Assembly: GCA_963847445.1 (NCBI GenBank)
Contig: CAWJZV010000006.1
Location: 144,133 to 208,132, forward strand
Reading direction: 5' to 3'
Source of the DNA: an uncultured delta proteobacterium
Lineage (GTDB): Bacteria > Desulfobacterota > Binatia > UBA9968
DNA length: 64,000 nt
The notes beneath the pieces were generated by a model. That model saw nothing but the letters and a program-made list of their open reading frames with translations, was not told where the DNA came from and made no database searches. Every line of letters starts with the position of its first letter. Within the stretch, counting starts at the first letter, position 1. Below are positions 27,246 to 34,917 of this stretch, one piece after another. The translations under genes were made by a program, and so were the position numbers.

Positions 27246-29042
27246 CTAGGGCTGGGTGACGCCCGCAAACGTCACCAGGTCCGCCACTGTGAAATCTCCA
27301 GCTGCGGCAGATGGCAGAAATGGAGTGAACCCGCCTGTTACGTTCAGGTAAGACGTTGCATCTCGCTTCAACATGCGGACGAAAGTCTCCGCCACTATCC
27401 TGCCACCCACCGGGCCCAGTTCGTTTCCTCCGCCGATCACGGACGCTTCGCGTAAGATGTAGTACCACAACGGCGTTTTCTGCAGCAGGATGCCACCGTT
27501 AGAATTCAGCAGACTCACCTCCGTCGCTGGGAGCCCCTGGGTCAGTTGCGCTGTTGTCATCGGCGTGATCCCGAAGGAATTCGCCATGCCCTTGCCGCTG
27601 GGTAGACCTAGCGCCAAGCCACGCCTGAGGTTCCGCGTTGCGAGCACCGCCATCATTCCGGTAAATCCTGGCAGCGACTCTAACCCCGCCGCCATGAAGC
27701 TGTCGATGGTGCGGGCCTTATTGTGAACTGGGACTGGCACACCGGTATCGAATAGGGCGTTGAAGTCCACCACCCAATTTGAAAAAACCGGAAGCCGCGG
27801 ATTGCGGACGAATTCGAACACCTGTCCCAGTGTTGCCGCCGGAAAGTTGAAATTTACAAAGTATGTGTCCCGGATCATGCTATGGCCGAAGCGGTAGGCG
27901 GCCACAGCAAACTCAACGGGCATGCGAAAGGGACTGCCTTGCGGCGCCACTACCGTTGAAAGAGCGTTGGTCACCGTCGCTGCGCCACAAATTCGCTTGA
28001 GGAAATCGTTCACCACGGCCCACTGATAGTGATGTGTCACGATCTTTTTAGCCTCGGCGAAGATATCACCGGCGAACGAAGCCGCTAGTAGCAGTTCCAC
28101 GACTTTGTTATGAAACCTCAACATGGCGTGGTGGAATTGCGCGATGATCAGGTTTTCGTCATTGCGCGGATCTCCGATCACGGCTGTGTTCGTCCCCCCA
28201 ATGCGTGGCACGTCGAATTGGGATTGCGTTACCATTCCGCCAGGAGTCCCGTTGTTGCTCGGTCCGCCCGGCCCGGTATTTGTGTTCGTCCCGAGCTGGA
28301 ACTTCACTGCGGTCGTCGGACCCGTGGAAGGGAATGCATAGAGAAACGGATCGAGCGCCGGTCCCCTCCCATACACGGAATCGAGATCAAGTGTCGGAGT
28401 ACGCATATTGTGGATCGTGTTCGCATCCGTGGCGCTATCAAGCGACGACGAGACATCCAGGGTAATGTCATGGTCCACGAATTGGCCGAAATATGTGTAA
28501 CCCGCCGGGATGGACGACACGCCCTGATCCGCCGAATTATGCGATCCCGGATTCGGATCGCGGCCCGGATCGCCCATCAACCCACCCAGTTGGCCCAATA
28601 ACGACTGATTCACTGCGTTGAAGGCCAACTTGGTCGCGCTCCTAACCGCAGCGCTCGACATGTAGCCAAACCTCTCGGCGCACGGCGAGGCGAGCCACGG
28701 AAACGGAAACCACGTCAGCGATATCTTACTGCCATGCAATCTCCGCTGCTCCGGCTTCATCGCTCGCAGACTACTTTTGATTTCTTCCGGCATTTTCGCC
28801 ACAGACTGTCCGGCGTCCGGCTTGATGCGATTCACCGTTTCCACAAGTCGCTCCACTGGAACGCTGGGTCTCAGATTCAGCTCCGCAAGCCGCTCCCGTA
28901 GCTGACGGACGGAAACCGGAGCTGGATTTGCAAACCTTCTCGGAGCCGCCGTTTCTTTGAGCAGCGCCAACAACCTTGCAGGAATCGCAGGGGTCTCTTT
29001 CGGGGAACTACTCTCCTTGGTCCGCGTTTTTTTTGTGGCCAT
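27246..29042 (-). CDS. Animal-type heme peroxidase (peroxidase-cyclooxygenase superfamily)
   Basis: YFGQFVDHDIT (distal His), GDPRNDEN, AAYRFGHSMIR (proximal His) and TPLWYYILREA motifs. Confidence 0.9.
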   Translation of the reverse strand: MATKKTRTKESSSPKETPAIPARLLALLKETAAPRRFANPAPVSVRQLRERLAELNLRPSVPVERLVETVNRIKPDAGQSVAKMPEEIKSSLRAMKPEQRRLHGSKISLTWFPFPWLASPCAERFGYMSSAAVRSATKLAFNAVNQSLLGQLGGLMGDPGRDPNPGSHNSADQGVSSIPAGYTYFGQFVDHDITLDVSSSLDSATDANTIHNMRTPTLDLDSVYGRGPALDPFLYAFPSTGPTTAVKFQLGTNTNTGPGGPSNNGTPGGMVTQSQFDVPRIGGTNTAVIGDPRNDENLIIAQFHHAMLRFHNKVVELLLAASFAGDIFAEAKKIVTHHYQWAVVNDFLKRICGAATVTNALSTVVAPQGSPFRMPVEFAVAAYRFGHSMIRDTYFVNFNFPAATLGQVFEFVRNPRLPVFSNWVVDFNALFDTGVPVPVHNKARTIDSFMAAGLESLPGFTGMMAVLATRNLRRGLALGLPSGKGMANSFGITPMTTAQLTQGLPATEVSLLNSNGGILLQKTPLWYYILREASVIGGGNELGPVGGRIVAETFVRMLKRDATSYLNVTGGFTPFLPSAAAGDFTVADLVTFAGVTQP

Positions 29043-29565: not shown

Positions 29566-29798
29566 CTCTACCGCTCGCGTCTCAATAAAGTAGTCAAAAC
29601 TTGGGGCATTTAAAGTCTACCATCGGAATTCTCGGCGCGGCGCCCGACGCACTGGGTAACCGTTGATTTTGTGCGCGAAGCTTTTGCACCGCTGATCAAG
29701 CGCGTCGGCGGGGTCAAGTCCCGCCTATGTAACCTTCTTGATTCGGCGGCCGTCGATCGATCTCGACTGAAATAATCATTTGTGATAGGGGGTTGAAA

Positions 29799-30128
29799 AT
29801 GCGAGTAGAGAGGCGAATTGTTTTCTTTGCGGCCTTATCCATGCTGCCGATTGCTTTCGGCTGCCAAACCATGCGCGGCGAAACCGCGGTGGCAATACCC
29901 GCGGTGGAAACGGAAACGCCGCAAGATCAGGCGTTGTCAAAGTCCGTACGGGCACGCCTGCTTGCGGATAAGAAAGTGAATCTATCCGGCATCAAGGTGG
30001 TATCCAACAACGGGACAGTTTATCTGAGCGGAGTCGTGAGTTCTCTAGATGCACGCCAGCAAGCGATCAAGCTCGCCTGGGAAACGCGCGGTGTGCAGAG
30101 CGTCGTCAACAGTCTTGAAGTTCAATAA
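29799..30128 (+). CDS. BON-domain lipoprotein
   Basis: Lipobox-like AFGC; DQALSKSVRARL, GTVYLSG and GVQSVVNSL motifs. Confidence 0.88.
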   Translation: MRVERRIVFFAALSMLPIAFGCQTMRGETAVAIPAVETETPQDQALSKSVRARLLADKKVNLSGIKVVSNNGTVYLSGVVSSLDARQQAIKLAWETRGVQSVVNSLEVQ

Positions 30129-30318
30129 ATTCCTGAAGCGAAAGTCGCGAGTCTGATTGCTCGTAAGAAAGCCGGGACAGGCTCTTTCAATCTAGACAAA
30201 TCTGGGTCGGATTCTTTAACCGTTCCAACTCTCCGAATAAACTACTCGCTTGTATCATCCGGGCTCATGGTCACAGTCTGTTCTACGCCCTTGGGGATTT
30301 TCCAGATGGTTTCATTTT

Positions 30319-30333
30319 GCGTCGCCCGGACGC
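30319..30333 (-). promoter_or_regulatory. Putative bacterial SECIS hairpin downstream of the selO in-frame UGA
   Basis: mRNA reads UGA GGCACCUGAGUGAC GCGUC-CGGGC-GACGC: 5-bp stem, G-containing loop starting 19 nt after the UGA, and no U-tract after the stem on either strand. Confidence 0.6.
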
Positions 30334-30338
30334 GTCAC

Positions 30339-31823
30339 TCAGGTGCCTCAGAAGGTTTGGTAGCGCTCTCGCCCTTCCGGTGCAGGTTCGGCATAGGCGG
30401 CAGACTCGAGCTGGTCGTCGAAAGGGCGCGATAGGATTTTCAGCAGCGTTTCGAAGGGCGCGTAATCGGCGCGTTGCACTGCGGCGCTCAACGCCTCCTC
30501 GACGCGATGATTGCGCGCGATGAACTTAGGATTGGCCCGCCGCATGGCTTGCGCGCGCTCCACGGGTGCCAGCGACTCGGGCTCAAGCCGCGCCCGCCAC
30601 TGTCCACTCCAGAGATCATAGGCCGACGGATCGGCAAACAGCGCGCGAATCTTTTCTTCCTCGCCTAGGGCCGCGTCGGCGAGGTAGCGGAACGCCAACG
30701 TGTAGTCGACCTTGTTGCTCTCTAGGACGGTAAGAAATCCATTGACAAGATTGAGATCGGCCTCGTCTTCACTGACCAGTCCGAGCTTGGCGCCCATGCC
30801 TTGAAGCCAGTGGCGTTTATATAAATCTGGAAAGCCATTGACCACCTCGCTGGCTTGCGCGATGGCGCGTTTACTGTCGGCATCGATCAGCGGTAGCAGC
30901 GTCTCCGCCAGCCGCGCCAGGTTCCACTGCGCGATGCTTGGTTGATTGGCGTAGGCATAGCGACCGCGGGTGTCGATGGAGCTGAAGACCGTCGCCGGAT
31001 CATAATGATCCATGAAGGCGCATGGCCCATAGTCGATGGTCTCACCGGAGATCGCCATGTTGTCGGTGTTCATCACGCCATGGATGAAGCCGACATGCAT
31101 CCAGCTCGCGATCAGCGCGGCTTGCCTGTCGCTGACGCTCGCAAGCAACTCAAGGTACGGATTCGCTTGGTCCTTTAATTCCGGATAATGGCGCGCGATC
31201 ACGTAATCAGCCAGGCGACGCACTTTGTCCTGCTCACCGCGGGCGGCGAACAACTGGAAAGTGCCGACACGGATGTGGCTCGCAGCGACGCGCGTCAATA
31301 CCGCGCCTGGCAACGCGGTTTCGCGATATATGGGCTCGCCTGTGATTACCGCGGCAAGCGCACGGGTGGTCGGAATACTTAGCGCGTGCATGGCTTCGCC
31401 GAGCAAATATTCACGCAAAACGGGACCGAGTGCGGCGCGGCCGTCGCCATTGCGCGAAAAGGGAGTGGGACCCGACCCTTTGAGCTGAATGTCGCGGCGC
31501 CGGCCCTGGCGGTCGATGACTTCTCCTAGAAGCAGCGCCCGGCCGTCACCAAGTTGCGGCGAGAAGCCGCCGAACTGGTGGCCGGCGTAGGCCTGAGCCA
31601 GGGGCAGCGCGCCCTCGGGTGTCTCATTGCCGGCAAAAATCCGCGCGCCTGCCTCGGAATCGAGAGCATCGGCATCCAGCCCCAATTCCTCGGCCAACTC
31701 ATAGTTGAGCTTTACCAACTCAGGCCGCGCTACCTGCGCCGCTTTCCACGGCACGTAGAAGCCCTCAAGTTCGCGCGCATAGGTATTGTCGAAGGTGAAT
31801 GGTCCGGCGGCGACGTGCATCAT
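30339..31823 (-). CDS. selO: Protein adenylyltransferase SelO/YdiU; probable C-terminal selenocysteine (YQTF-U-GT)
   Basis: YAGHQFG, QLGDGRA, QLKGSG, GFIHGVMNTDN and DYGPCAF motifs; ends TAC CAA ACC TTC TGA GGC ACC TGA. Confidence 0.93.
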
Positions 31824-32146: not shown

Positions 32147-32932
32147 TCAACCCTTCGGCGGGGTTGCCACTAACGCGCTGCGAATCTCTTTGAGTTTTGC
32201 CTTTACTGAGGCAGCATTTTCGCCGCCCATGCGCACGAGGATTTTCTGCCCCGCCGACAGTTTCTCCAGATTCGCATCGGCGAACTGGTAAAGTACGCTG
32301 GTCTGGGTAAGCAGCACGGGATCTTTCACTTCGGGTGCCGCCAGCAGATGGTCGATCACTTGGACCACTCGGTCGTTGAAGTACTTGCCCGGATATCCGA
32401 GCTTCTCGTACTGTTCCTGGAACAGCGGGTAAAACCTTGCGTATATCGACACCAGCGGCGCAACCGGCACCGATTTCGCGACGCCCACATAAGGCTGGTA
32501 GCGCGCCGCGTTCTTCGGGCTGAGGCGCAGCTCCTCGCCCTTGCCCGTCGTGATTAGCCAGCCAGGCAAGGATTTCATCGGCAGTATCTGCGCTGGCAAG
32601 TGTTCCAGGGGCAAATTGTCGACGGTGGCGACGACGCGGTGAATGATCCCCTGCAGATTGAAAAACTTTTGCAGATCCCGACCGAACAGTTTCGCCAGCG
32701 CGTCTTGCATCGCCTTGTCGCTATCGGCCAGCGCCGGCAACGGTTCGTCAGACCCCTGCGCTTGACCGGTCGCCTCGATCGGATAGCGGATCGCCGGTTC
32801 CTCTGGCGCAGAAACCGTTGGCGGTTGCGCCATCTGCGGTGCCGGTGTCTCGCTCGCGCGCCAAAGGTACAGGGCAACGGCGCCGCCGACTACAACCGCC
32901 AACAGAATCAACCACTGGAAGGTTTTATTCAT
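32147..32932 (-). CDS. DUF3014 family membrane-anchored protein
   Basis: N-terminal TM segment; LPALADSD, VATVDNL, NAARYQPY, LGYPGKYFNDR and LSAGQKILVRMG motifs. Confidence 0.85.
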   Translation of the reverse strand: MNKTFQWLILLAVVVGGAVALYLWRASETPAPQMAQPPTVSAPEEPAIRYPIEATGQAQGSDEPLPALADSDKAMQDALAKLFGRDLQKFFNLQGIIHRVVATVDNLPLEHLPAQILPMKSLPGWLITTGKGEELRLSPKNAARYQPYVGVAKSVPVAPLVSIYARFYPLFQEQYEKLGYPGKYFNDRVVQVIDHLLAAPEVKDPVLLTQTSVLYQFADANLEKLSAGQKILVRMGGENAASVKAKLKEIRSALVATPPKG

Positions 32933-33355: not shown

Positions 33356-34917
33356 TTATTGCAACCTCCGAACAGCCGCTTCGGCACAGCGCTCGCCGTC
33401 CATCGCCGCCGACACGATGCCCCCGGCGTAACCTGCTCCTTCGCCGCAAGGAAATAAATTTATCAGCTGCGGGTTTTGCAAGGTGACATTGTCGCGCGGA
33501 ATGCGCACCGGCGAAGAAGTTCGGCTCTCCACGCCGATGATCTGGGCGTCATTGGTTAGGTATCCCGCCATTTTATGGCCGAAGCTCTTAAACCCCTGAC
33601 GGAGCGCGTCGGCGACAAAGCCGGGAAGGAAGGCGCGCATATCGGCCGCAATTAGTCCGGGGTGGTACGAGGTCTCGAGCACACTCGACGACATTCTGTT
33701 TTCTATGAAATCGCTCAGGCGCTGGGCCGGAGCGGCTTGGGTCTTGCCGGCCACCGCCCAGGCTTTTTGTTCTACTTCCGCCTGAAACTGCATGGCGGCT
33801 AGAGGACCATAGTGGTGCAGATGTTGGTAATCATGCTCATCCACCGCCACGACAATGCCCGAGTTGGCAAAGCGGGCATTTCTTTGCGAAGGGCTCATGC
33901 CATTGACGACCAGCTCGCCCGGCGAAGTGGCCGCCGGCACGATAAAGCCGCCGGGGCACATGCAGAAGGAAAACACGCCCTTGTCCTTGCCATTGATCTT
34001 CGCCTGATGCACCAGGGCATAGGCGGCGGCGGGTAAATATACACCTCGGTCTGCCTGGCAATGGTACTGAATGCTATCGATGAGGCTCTGTCGATGCTCC
34101 ACCCGCACACCTAGGGCAAAAGGCTTGGCTTCGATCAGAATCTTCTTATCGTACAGTAAGTGAAAAATATCGCGGGCGGAGTGGCCGGTGGCTAAAATCG
34201 TCGCCCGGCCTTCGATGACATCGCCATGCTGCGTGCGCACGCCTTTCATCTCACTTCCATCGAGCAAGAAATCAGTCACGCGGGTTTGAAAATGAACCTC
34301 TCCACCTGCCTGTTTGATACTCTCGCGCAGTTCGGCAACGAGTTTAGGTAGCTTATTAGTGCCGATATGCGGATGGGCATCGAAGAGGATTTCATCCTTG
34401 GCGCCATGAGCTACCAGTATCTCCAGGATGCGCTGCACGTCGCCACGCTTCTTGGAGCGCGTGTATAATTTGCCGTCGGAATAAGTGCCCGCCCCACCTT
34501 CGCCGAAGCAATAGTTCGAGTCGGGATTGACGATATGTTCTTTGTTGATAGCGGCGAGATCGTAGCGGCGCGCATGCACATCTTTGCCGCGCTCCAGCAC
34601 GATCGGTTTATAGCCCAATTCAATCAATCGGAGCGCGGCGAACAAACCGGCCGGGCCTGAACCGATGATGACGACCGGATCTTTGCTATGGACCGAGGGT
34701 AGTCCTTGGTGCGTCGCGGCGGGATGTTGGCGCGCTCGACGATGTCGTATTGCACGCGCACGACTATGTTCCGGCCGCGCGCGTCCACCGAGCGCTTGAG
34801 CGGCACCACCGCCAAACTGCCATCGCGAGGGATGGACAGCTTCTTATACAAAACCGCAACAAACAAGGCCTCGTCAAAGGCCTCTTGCGGCGTCAGGACC
34901 AGTTCTTTTATGTTCAT
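33356..34917 (-). CDS. NAD(P)/FAD-dependent oxidoreductase (COG2509-type); frameshift ~34690
   Basis: KRSVDAR, IIGSGPAG, FGEGGAGTYSDGKL, FCMCPGG and GEGAGYAGGIVSAA motifs. Confidence 0.88.

Follow-up and report, generated by a model that had tools for sequence, protein, structure and literature searches.

A gene for the protein adenylyltransferase SelO (YdiU) lies on the minus strand of a 64,000-nucleotide stretch of DNA from an uncultured delta proteobacterium of the Binatia (contig CAWJZV010000006.1 of assembly GCA_963847445.1; the whole stretch is called the window below). It raises a question of decoding: does its protein end at the first in-frame TGA, or is this codon read as selenocysteine (Sec), with translation going on to a second TGA just beyond? 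Under translation table 11, the open reading frame (ORF) occupies 30348..31823 and encodes 491 amino acids. Its 3' end reads TAC CAA ACC TTC TGA GGC ACC TGA, that is, Y-Q-T-F-stop-G-T-stop. Read through the first TGA, the gene would extend over 30339..31823 (all its features given below are on the minus strand), with 494 codons and a stop, M1...F491-U492-G493-T494.

The proposed Sec codon, the in-frame TGA at codon 492 (30348..30350), is followed by GGC ACC for Gly-Thr (codons 493-494, 30342..30347) and by the TGA that would be the real stop (30339..30341). Beyond a variable spacer, which is GUGAC in this gene (30334..30338), stands a hairpin resembling a selenocysteine insertion sequence (SECIS) at 30319..30333, with a 5' arm GCGUC (30329-30333), a loop CGGGC (30324-30328) and a 3' arm GACGC (30319-30323). 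An earlier note on this DNA had pointed to an ORF end at YQTF-TGA with GGC ACC TGA behind it, to a GCGUC/GACGC stem with a G-containing loop 14 nucleotides (nt) past the first UGA, and to A's following the hairpin, as opposed to an intrinsic terminator. The first two statements, read against the minus-strand sequence, are exact, and so is the third: AAAA follows the hairpin, and a terminator scan reports nothing there.

From the comparisons described below, we regard Sec decoding of SelO in this lineage as highly probable, and the gene in the window as very probably a selenoprotein form of bacterial SelO. That Sec decoding still works in this particular strain, given a broken selC locus, seems to us fairly probable. 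In the mechanism that we propose, UGA-492 would be decoded as Sec by SelB with Sec-tRNA(Sec); translation would then add Gly-Thr and halt at the next UGA. The signal would be a minimal 15-nt hairpin of 5 base pairs (bp) with a CGGGN loop, and, since 14 nt separate it from the Sec codon, it would lie wholly beyond the real stop. The Sec would stand in place of the C-terminal Cys of the [CU]xx> tail, corresponding to Cys476 of E. coli and Sec667 of human, and would most likely engage in a reversible selenenylsulfide with Cys268, placing the AMPylase activity under redox control. Four of these steps are predictions from sequence: insertion of Sec, binding by SelB, the partnership with Cys268 and the redox switch.

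TGA, Gly-Thr and hairpin in related genomes

With SelO translated through the TGA as the query, we scanned 123 genomes of the window's order (G000 is the source genome; G003, G004, G014, G015, G029, G075 and so on are related genomes). SelO was found in 47 of them, and in 43 the match reached codon 492, which was TGA in 24 genomes and TGC in 19 (all 19 read as TGC). The scan took in two unpublished genomes, G005, without a SelO match, and G076, whose match ends at residue 199; G005 is also among the 41 genomes counted below for Sec machinery, and no Sec/Cys call rests on either. An alternation of TGA and TGY codons, with a kept GT-stop and hairpin, had been proposed as a check in the earlier note, and this is what the order displays.

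In all 24 TGA genes we found the same succession: TGA-GGN-ACN-TGA, a spacer of 4-6 nt (pairwise identity 0.70) and then the hairpin. Codon 493 was GGC in 13 genes, GGT in 8 and GGG in 3, and codon 494 was ACC in 22, ACA in 1 and ACT in 1. Both codons thus vary synonymously, at the third position only, which is the pattern of translated sequence (two codons being available for this comparison). The Cys relatives, in turn, end in the (Y)xTFCGT tail that had been claimed for one subfamily of these proteins. As for the true stop, it is TGA in 24/24 Sec-form genes; among the order's 21 Cys rows, it is TGA in 16, TAA in 3 and TAG in 2. The Sec forms may owe their exclusive use of TGA to common descent or to demands of the recoding context.

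The hairpin follows the TGA codon closely. The five core pairs of the stem are identical in 24/24 Sec forms, bar one U-A to U.G change in G075, and the fifth loop base is free (C in 16, G in 6, U in 1 and A in 1). Averaged over pairs of genes, identity is 0.955 within the hairpin but 0.396 in the 15 nt that follow it; third positions of the last 12 codons stand at 0.633. The stem, which starts 14 nt after the UGA in the window, starts 13-15 nt after it in the relatives, and the loop G's lie 21-23 nt after the UGA. No intact hairpin occurs in the order's 21 Cys rows or in nine outgroup rows; about 11 Cys rows carry mutated remnants of it, of the form ACGAGTCAGGG.GACGC. Over the 47 full-length rows, the hairpin is intact in 22/22 Sec forms and 0/25 Cys forms.

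A quick maximum-likelihood tree was built from the 47 rows of at least 380 amino acids (7 shorter rows were left out). The SelO proteins of the order form one clade (SH-aLRT 95), with 22 Sec and 16 Cys members, as against nine outgroup rows that are all Cys. The tree needs at least seven Sec/Cys changes, two of which are forced by well-supported branches. Of 401 genomes drawn evenly from the phylum, 23 had SelO, with TGA only in the window's own, and the phylum outgroups have TGC or TGT in 8/8 cases.

An exact-pattern scan of a species-representative collection (TGA-GGN-ACN-TGA plus hairpin) returned 33 loci, 25 of which stand at the ends of SelO genes (74-84% identity); the other 8, without SelO, are chance matches. 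By record title, the 25 SelO loci belong to Candidatus Binatia bacterium (10), uncultured delta proteobacterium (10), Deltaproteobacteria bacterium (3), Pseudomonadota bacterium (1) and Chloroflexota bacterium (1).

The two forms can also be told apart in public protein clusters. Among the best 120 of 2581 cluster matches, all from the same lineage (other phyla lie beyond the reach of this sample), 40 end in ..T[FY] and 78 end in CGT. The loss of three residues by gene callers, anticipated in the earlier note, is therefore real for the Sec form, which is truncated at ..T[FY] in those 40 clusters. Since public annotation drops these three residues, it removes what is probably a functional one, and a Sec-aware annotation of SelO is needed for metagenome-assembled genomes of the Binatia type.

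In the Cys-form genomes G003 and G004, we observed a second, partial SelO copy about 3 kb from the full gene (G003:C29:435912-436148 and G004:C9:295149-295385). It comprises the C-terminal 79 residues and ends in CGT.

The protein and its C-terminal tail

The window protein matches PF02696 with an E value of 2.4e-120 (profile positions 7-464 of 466) and the YdiU family model NF000658 with 581.2 bits, against a cut-off of 431. It falls below the cut-offs of the equivalog models NF045949 (434 bits vs 850) and NF040880 (409 bits vs 900). Under NCBI's rule it counts as a YdiU family protein rather than as an equivalog of the enzyme from Pseudomonas or E. coli. The catalytic-loop motif HGVMNTDNM and the DYGP motif, whose functional roles we in part presume, are identical or near-identical in an alignment with four solved SelO chains (6k20, 6iii, 9jym and 6eac). 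Other assignments of roles to the catalytic-loop and metal-motif residues come from the accessible part of a review (PMC8097203). By its family, the protein is a predicted AMPylase, which may carry out AMPylation or UMPylation.

In an end-to-end alignment, U492 is matched by a Cys, third from the C-terminal end, in the SelO proteins of E. coli, Salmonella and P. syringae represented by the same four chains. According to the accessible text of two reviews, which cite Sreelatha et al. 2018 for this account, Cys272 and Cys476 of the E. coli enzyme form a regulatory disulfide, and Cys476 is a Sec in higher eukaryotes (PMC7278666, PMC8097203). The part of Dudkiewicz 2012 that is accessible describes a general [CU]xx> tail, with bacterial proteins usually ending in Cxx> (PMC3281104). 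The window protein has such a [CU]xx> tail, U-G-T-end. The CxxU motif is absent from its tail, R-Y-Q-T-F-U, which has no Cys at -3.

Cys268 (in DYGPC; 31020..31022) is the protein's sole cysteine. It lies in the activation-loop region and is invariant in 47/47 aligned SelO rows; because it is both the only Cys and an invariant one, its pairing with Sec492 in a selenenylsulfide is a reasonable proposition. We judge the chances of a Cys268-Sec492 redox switch to be evenly balanced, and its regulatory role is suggested by analogy with the Cys272-Cys476 pair of E. coli.

The tails of the Sec and Cys forms differ at a further position. An extra Cys at -5 (C-Y-x-T-F-C-G-T) occurs in 16/21 Cys rows of the order and in 1/24 Sec rows; among the best 120 cluster matches, it occurs in 66/78 of those ending in CGT and 0/40 of those ending in ..T[FY]. 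At this position, the Sec forms have Arg or His. The -5 Cys may be a compensating helper cysteine, judging from this distribution, with kinship of the rows as another possible cause. A broader scenario, which we offer tentatively and consider rather doubtful as a whole, is that Binatia-type SelO toggles between a selenium tail, [RH]-Y-x-T-F-U-G-T, and a two-Cys tail, C-Y-x-T-F-C-G-T. One Sec would then replace a Cys pair, the -5 Cys would compensate each Sec-to-Cys switch, one of the smallest natural SECIS would act beyond the stop, and an island in selC would here leave the UGAs of SelO, SelD and FdhA unreadable.

Selenocysteine machinery and alternative explanations

The source genome holds most of the genes expected of a Sec user. 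In contig C14, at 191714-195726, selA (495.7 bits), selB (in four frame pieces) and selD (360.3 bits) lie side by side. An in-frame TGA interrupts selD (C14:194887-195726); SelD is itself a selenoprotein (G-U-A-A-K-L) in the source genome and in four relatives. There is also a Sec-type formate dehydrogenase gene, fdhA (C34:150014-153297, ARI-U-HSS), whose SECIS, GUCCCC-GGUCU-GGGGAC, starts 12 nt after the UGA. In selD, GGUC-CGGGC-GACC likewise begins 12 nt after the UGA and has in common with the SelO hairpin an 11-mer that is present just six times in the genome. This stretch of selD also encodes Gly-Pro-Gly-Asp and is not conserved in selD of G015 or G029, so it adds only weakly to the case. 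The SelO, fdhA and selD elements are alike in having a G+C-rich stem of 4-6 pairs, a 5-nt loop and G's about 18-23 nt after the UGA. In the bSECISearch consensus, one of the first bases of the loop is a G, at a distance of 16-37 nt from the UGA.

Among the 41 related genomes, selA was found in 40, and a tRNA-Sec scoring 73-78 bits in 29. In three relatives (G014, G015 and G029), Sec-SelO occurs together with uninterrupted ORFs for selA, selB and selD and with a tRNA-Sec of 74-77 bits. The Cys-form genomes G003 and G004 also have Sec machinery, so loss of the trait does not explain the Cys forms. The search for sel genes that the earlier note had proposed was thus successful for selA, selB and selD; an intact selC, the gene for tRNA-Sec, is not in the assembly of the source genome. 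The idea in the earlier note that the UGA is read as Sec at the C-terminal Cys position gains support from the TGA/TGC alternation, the coding-type conservation behind the codon, the link between hairpin and TGA, and the sel genes.

Several observations weigh against Sec decoding of this gene or against parts of the mechanism. A 63-nt stretch with the hairpin folds at -10.2 kcal/mol (z = +0.88), a stability equalled or exceeded by 158/200 shuffled sequences. Judged from a single sequence, the hairpin does not exceed chance expectation, so its significance comes from the comparison with relatives alone. In the covariation analysis, four of the six pairs never vary and the observed score was reached in 328/500 shuffles, but, the stem being invariant, such tests speak neither for nor against. 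A phylogenetically independent test had only two pairs on well-supported branches (p 0.5) and hence no power. No Rfam family matched the whole window at the gathering threshold, or 30240-30420 at E values up to 10; Rfam may be without any model for so small a bacterial SECIS. In the protein, Cys268 lies 12 residues before the position aligned with E. coli Cys272, which is a Phe here, and the E. coli residue at the Cys268 position is also a Phe. To the same side belong the state of the tRNA-Sec locus, where no RF01852 hit in the source genome passes the Rfam cut-off (the best, at 45 bits, is a tRNA-Ser) and only pieces of the gene were found, and six 1-nt insertions in selA, selB and selD relative to two relatives.

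The genome as a whole contains 1350 hairpins with a stem of at least 4 pairs and a CGGGN loop; the 15-mer of the SelO hairpin occurs in it once. Genome-wide scans for a TGA with a similar hairpin, tried as a definition of the selenoproteome, gave 47 and 45 candidates and were dropped as too noisy.

The tRNA-Sec locus is broken in two: C4:239464-239486 carries a 5' piece of 23 nt (2 mismatches) and C12:77575-77602 a 3' piece of about 24 nt; the middle is nowhere in the assembly, and the flanks of both pieces are syntenic with those in the relative G003. Only 51 nt from the 3' piece there is a gene for a tyrosine integrase (C12:77653-78855, Arm-DNA-bind_2 plus Phage_integrase). The split gene and the adjoining integrase suggest that an integrative element landed in selC. 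Indeed, selC is a classical target of integrative elements. ARAGORN reported a tRNA-SeC(tca) at C2:139122-139203, which we rejected as a false call, for it has a poor structure and no Rfam match at E values up to 0.1; taken at face value, it would wrongly have stood for the missing selC. A 92-nt tRNA-Gly(gcc) from the same program (C8:162919-163010) was rejected for its poor structure.

We considered whether the sel-gene frameshifts could reflect decay of the Sec trait, and rejected this. All six are +1 insertions; a neighbouring gene unrelated to Sec (of glucanotransferase size, in C14:190000-198000) carries one as well; and, compared with intact ORFs of G004, the source genome has 31 frame changes in 93 kb (about 0.33 per kb), with 19/69 genes split. 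The runs compared at the sel locus contain at most 0.39 of the words (RNA runs, 0.05-0.09), so their reads are from other strains and samples and do not confirm the assembly's own bases. Contigs assembled from four other samples are without the extra bases wherever they cover them (position 2737 in four runs, 3252/3255 in three, 5730 in two and 7140 in three); one such contig spans 694 nt with 1 mismatch. From these four lines of evidence, the frame breaks are best taken as assembly noise, and gene calls on the source genome are badly fragmented.

The broken selC is the basis of one alternative, namely that Sec-SelO is a trait of the lineage but Sec decoding is gone, or disappearing, from this strain through an element in selC, so that its SelO ends at Phe491 without a redox-active residue. 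The two tRNA-Sec pieces with their G003-like flanks and the nearby integrase fit this idea, as does the lack of any other tRNA-Sec in the assembly. Yet completeness of the assembly is 91.8% and contamination 6.9%, and tRNAs often remain unassembled; integrative elements that enter a tRNA gene usually restore the tRNA at their opposite end; the TGA, the Gly-Thr codons and the hairpin of SelO are all intact in the source genome; and the frameshifts, occurring genome-wide, are no evidence of decay. We consider such a loss unlikely. Far less probable, in our view, is that the first TGA serves as a normal stop codon across the lineage and the hairpin as a 3'-end RNA element for stability or processing, unrelated to Sec. 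The hairpin is indeed short, lacks covariation and has no Rfam match, and the truncated public proteins end at Phe491; however, an ordinary stop does not account for the purely synonymous changes in codons 493-494 over 24 genes, for a TGA exactly at the Cys codon, or for a hairpin that accompanies only TGA, decays in the TGC genes and is no terminator. Moreover, its distance from the UGA and its G-rich loop match the SECIS elements of fdhA and selD.

Conservation of two codons calls for read-through and not for Sec as such, hence the UGA might also be read without selenium, by a near-cognate tRNA inserting Trp or Cys. This would leave unexplained the strict link of the hairpin to TGA, as well as the occurrence of selA and tRNA-Sec in the relatives. 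The accessible part of a study in E. coli describes insertion without a SECIS as virtually non-existent (PMC3834832), which also counts against read-through of this kind, and we find it scarcely plausible. As for an error in sequencing or assembly, or a nonsense mutation private to this genome, the assembly is admittedly error-prone, but its observed errors are 1-nt insertions, not substitutions, and within the order the TGA recurs in 23 further genomes; it also stands at the 25 SelO loci of the species-representative collection. The truncated tails in public clusters agree with this, so the private mutation that the earlier note had named as a possible refutation is excluded, and we treat the chance of an error as negligible. 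Sec decoding of the UGA thus remains the explanation that we favor.

Known systems and gene neighborhood

Few AMPylases are as widespread as SelO, whose C-terminal Cys or Sec is regarded as its redox switch. The 2020 review states, in its accessible part, that Sec is replaced by an invariant Cys in all prokaryotes (PMC7278666). The earlier note, similarly, knew of no characterised example of a bacterial Sec-containing SelO. This holds for experimentally characterised proteins, as far as the accessible text of the sources goes, but not for predictions (PMC12013277, PMC13188914). The deep-Sep work (mSystems 2025) predicted a Sec-containing selenoprotein O-like protein in Desulfosediminicola ganghwensis IMCC35004; in the part accessible, its authors present this as the first such detection in bacteria and mention TGA homologues in other Sec-using bacteria (PMC12013277). 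In the accessible text of an AEM 2026 review, a table lists the Desulfosediminicola protein as PF02696, WP_136798779.1 (PMC13188914).

Compared by its description in the available text, the Desulfosediminicola protein is similar to ours in belonging to COG0397/PF02696, in its in-frame TGA, in having Cys homologues and in a predicted bacterial SECIS. The two differ in phylum, Thermodesulfobacteriota versus Candidatus Binatota (NCBI taxonomy), and, as far as the accessible part of that paper goes, it deals with one organism, whereas the Binatia form occurs in 24 genomes with repeated Sec/Cys switching. In the literature searched, we found no paper linking Binatia or Binatota with selenocysteine or selenoproteins. 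The window SelO is thus a well-supported case of a kind predicted once before, in a new lineage and another phylum. Features that we did not find described in the accessible literature are a SECIS wholly behind the stop, repeated Sec/Cys switching among close orthologues, decay of the SECIS in Cys genes, and a -5 Cys found almost only in Cys forms.

Human and other vertebrate SELENOO (Sec667, CVTUSS>) belongs to the same family and, as described in the accessible parts of two papers, also has its Sec third from the C-terminus, in a [CU]xx> tail (PMC3281104, PMC7278666). The window tail, YQTF-U-GT, differs in having no Cys at -3 and hence no CxxU. Recoding in SELENOO depends on a eukaryotic kink-turn SECIS in the 3' untranslated region, whereas the window has a bacterial hairpin near the UGA and no mitochondrial targeting context. 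With the YdiU proteins of E. coli, Salmonella and P. syringae, the window protein shares a full-length alignment (E ~1e-105), HGVMNTDNM, D[YF]GP and a C-terminal Cys at the position of U492. It differs from the E. coli protein in that Cys476 is replaced by the predicted Sec and Cys272 by Phe, and in its GT tail.

The hairpin resembles fdhF-type and 17-nt engineered SECIS elements in being short and G+C-rich, with loop G's about 20 nt after the UGA. Unlike them, it has a 5-bp stem with no bulge and a CGGGN loop (against GGUC), and it is natural, wholly post-stop and a predicted SelB site. In the numbering of the E. coli SECIS, the bulged U is U17 and the loop bases are G23/U24. A position behind the stop codon is reportedly also that of the SECIS in an E. 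coli construct for rat TrxR1 (the source being reference 12 of the TrxR1 paper). According to the accessible part of that paper, a 17-nt bacterial SECIS was used, with the Sec, Sec498, as the penultimate residue (PMC3834832). This precedent shows that a layout of the kind we propose can work in E. coli. A natural bacterial SECIS wholly outside the reading frame would be the same layout that is exploited for recombinant selenoproteins.

With about half of the orthologues in the Sec form and half in the Cys form, at 77-88% protein identity, the Binatia SelO proteins amount to a natural experiment on what selenium contributes to the switch. Near-identical Sec and Cys enzymes would also allow a direct biochemical comparison.

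Around the SelO gene, the window encodes an animal-haem-peroxidase-like protein downstream on the same strand (27246-29042, minus), a nearby BON-domain ORF on the opposite strand (29793-30128, plus), a neighbouring DUF3014 protein (32147-32932, minus) and, upstream, an FAD-dependent protein (33356-34645, minus). The peroxidase neighbour suggests a possible oxidative-stress context for SelO.

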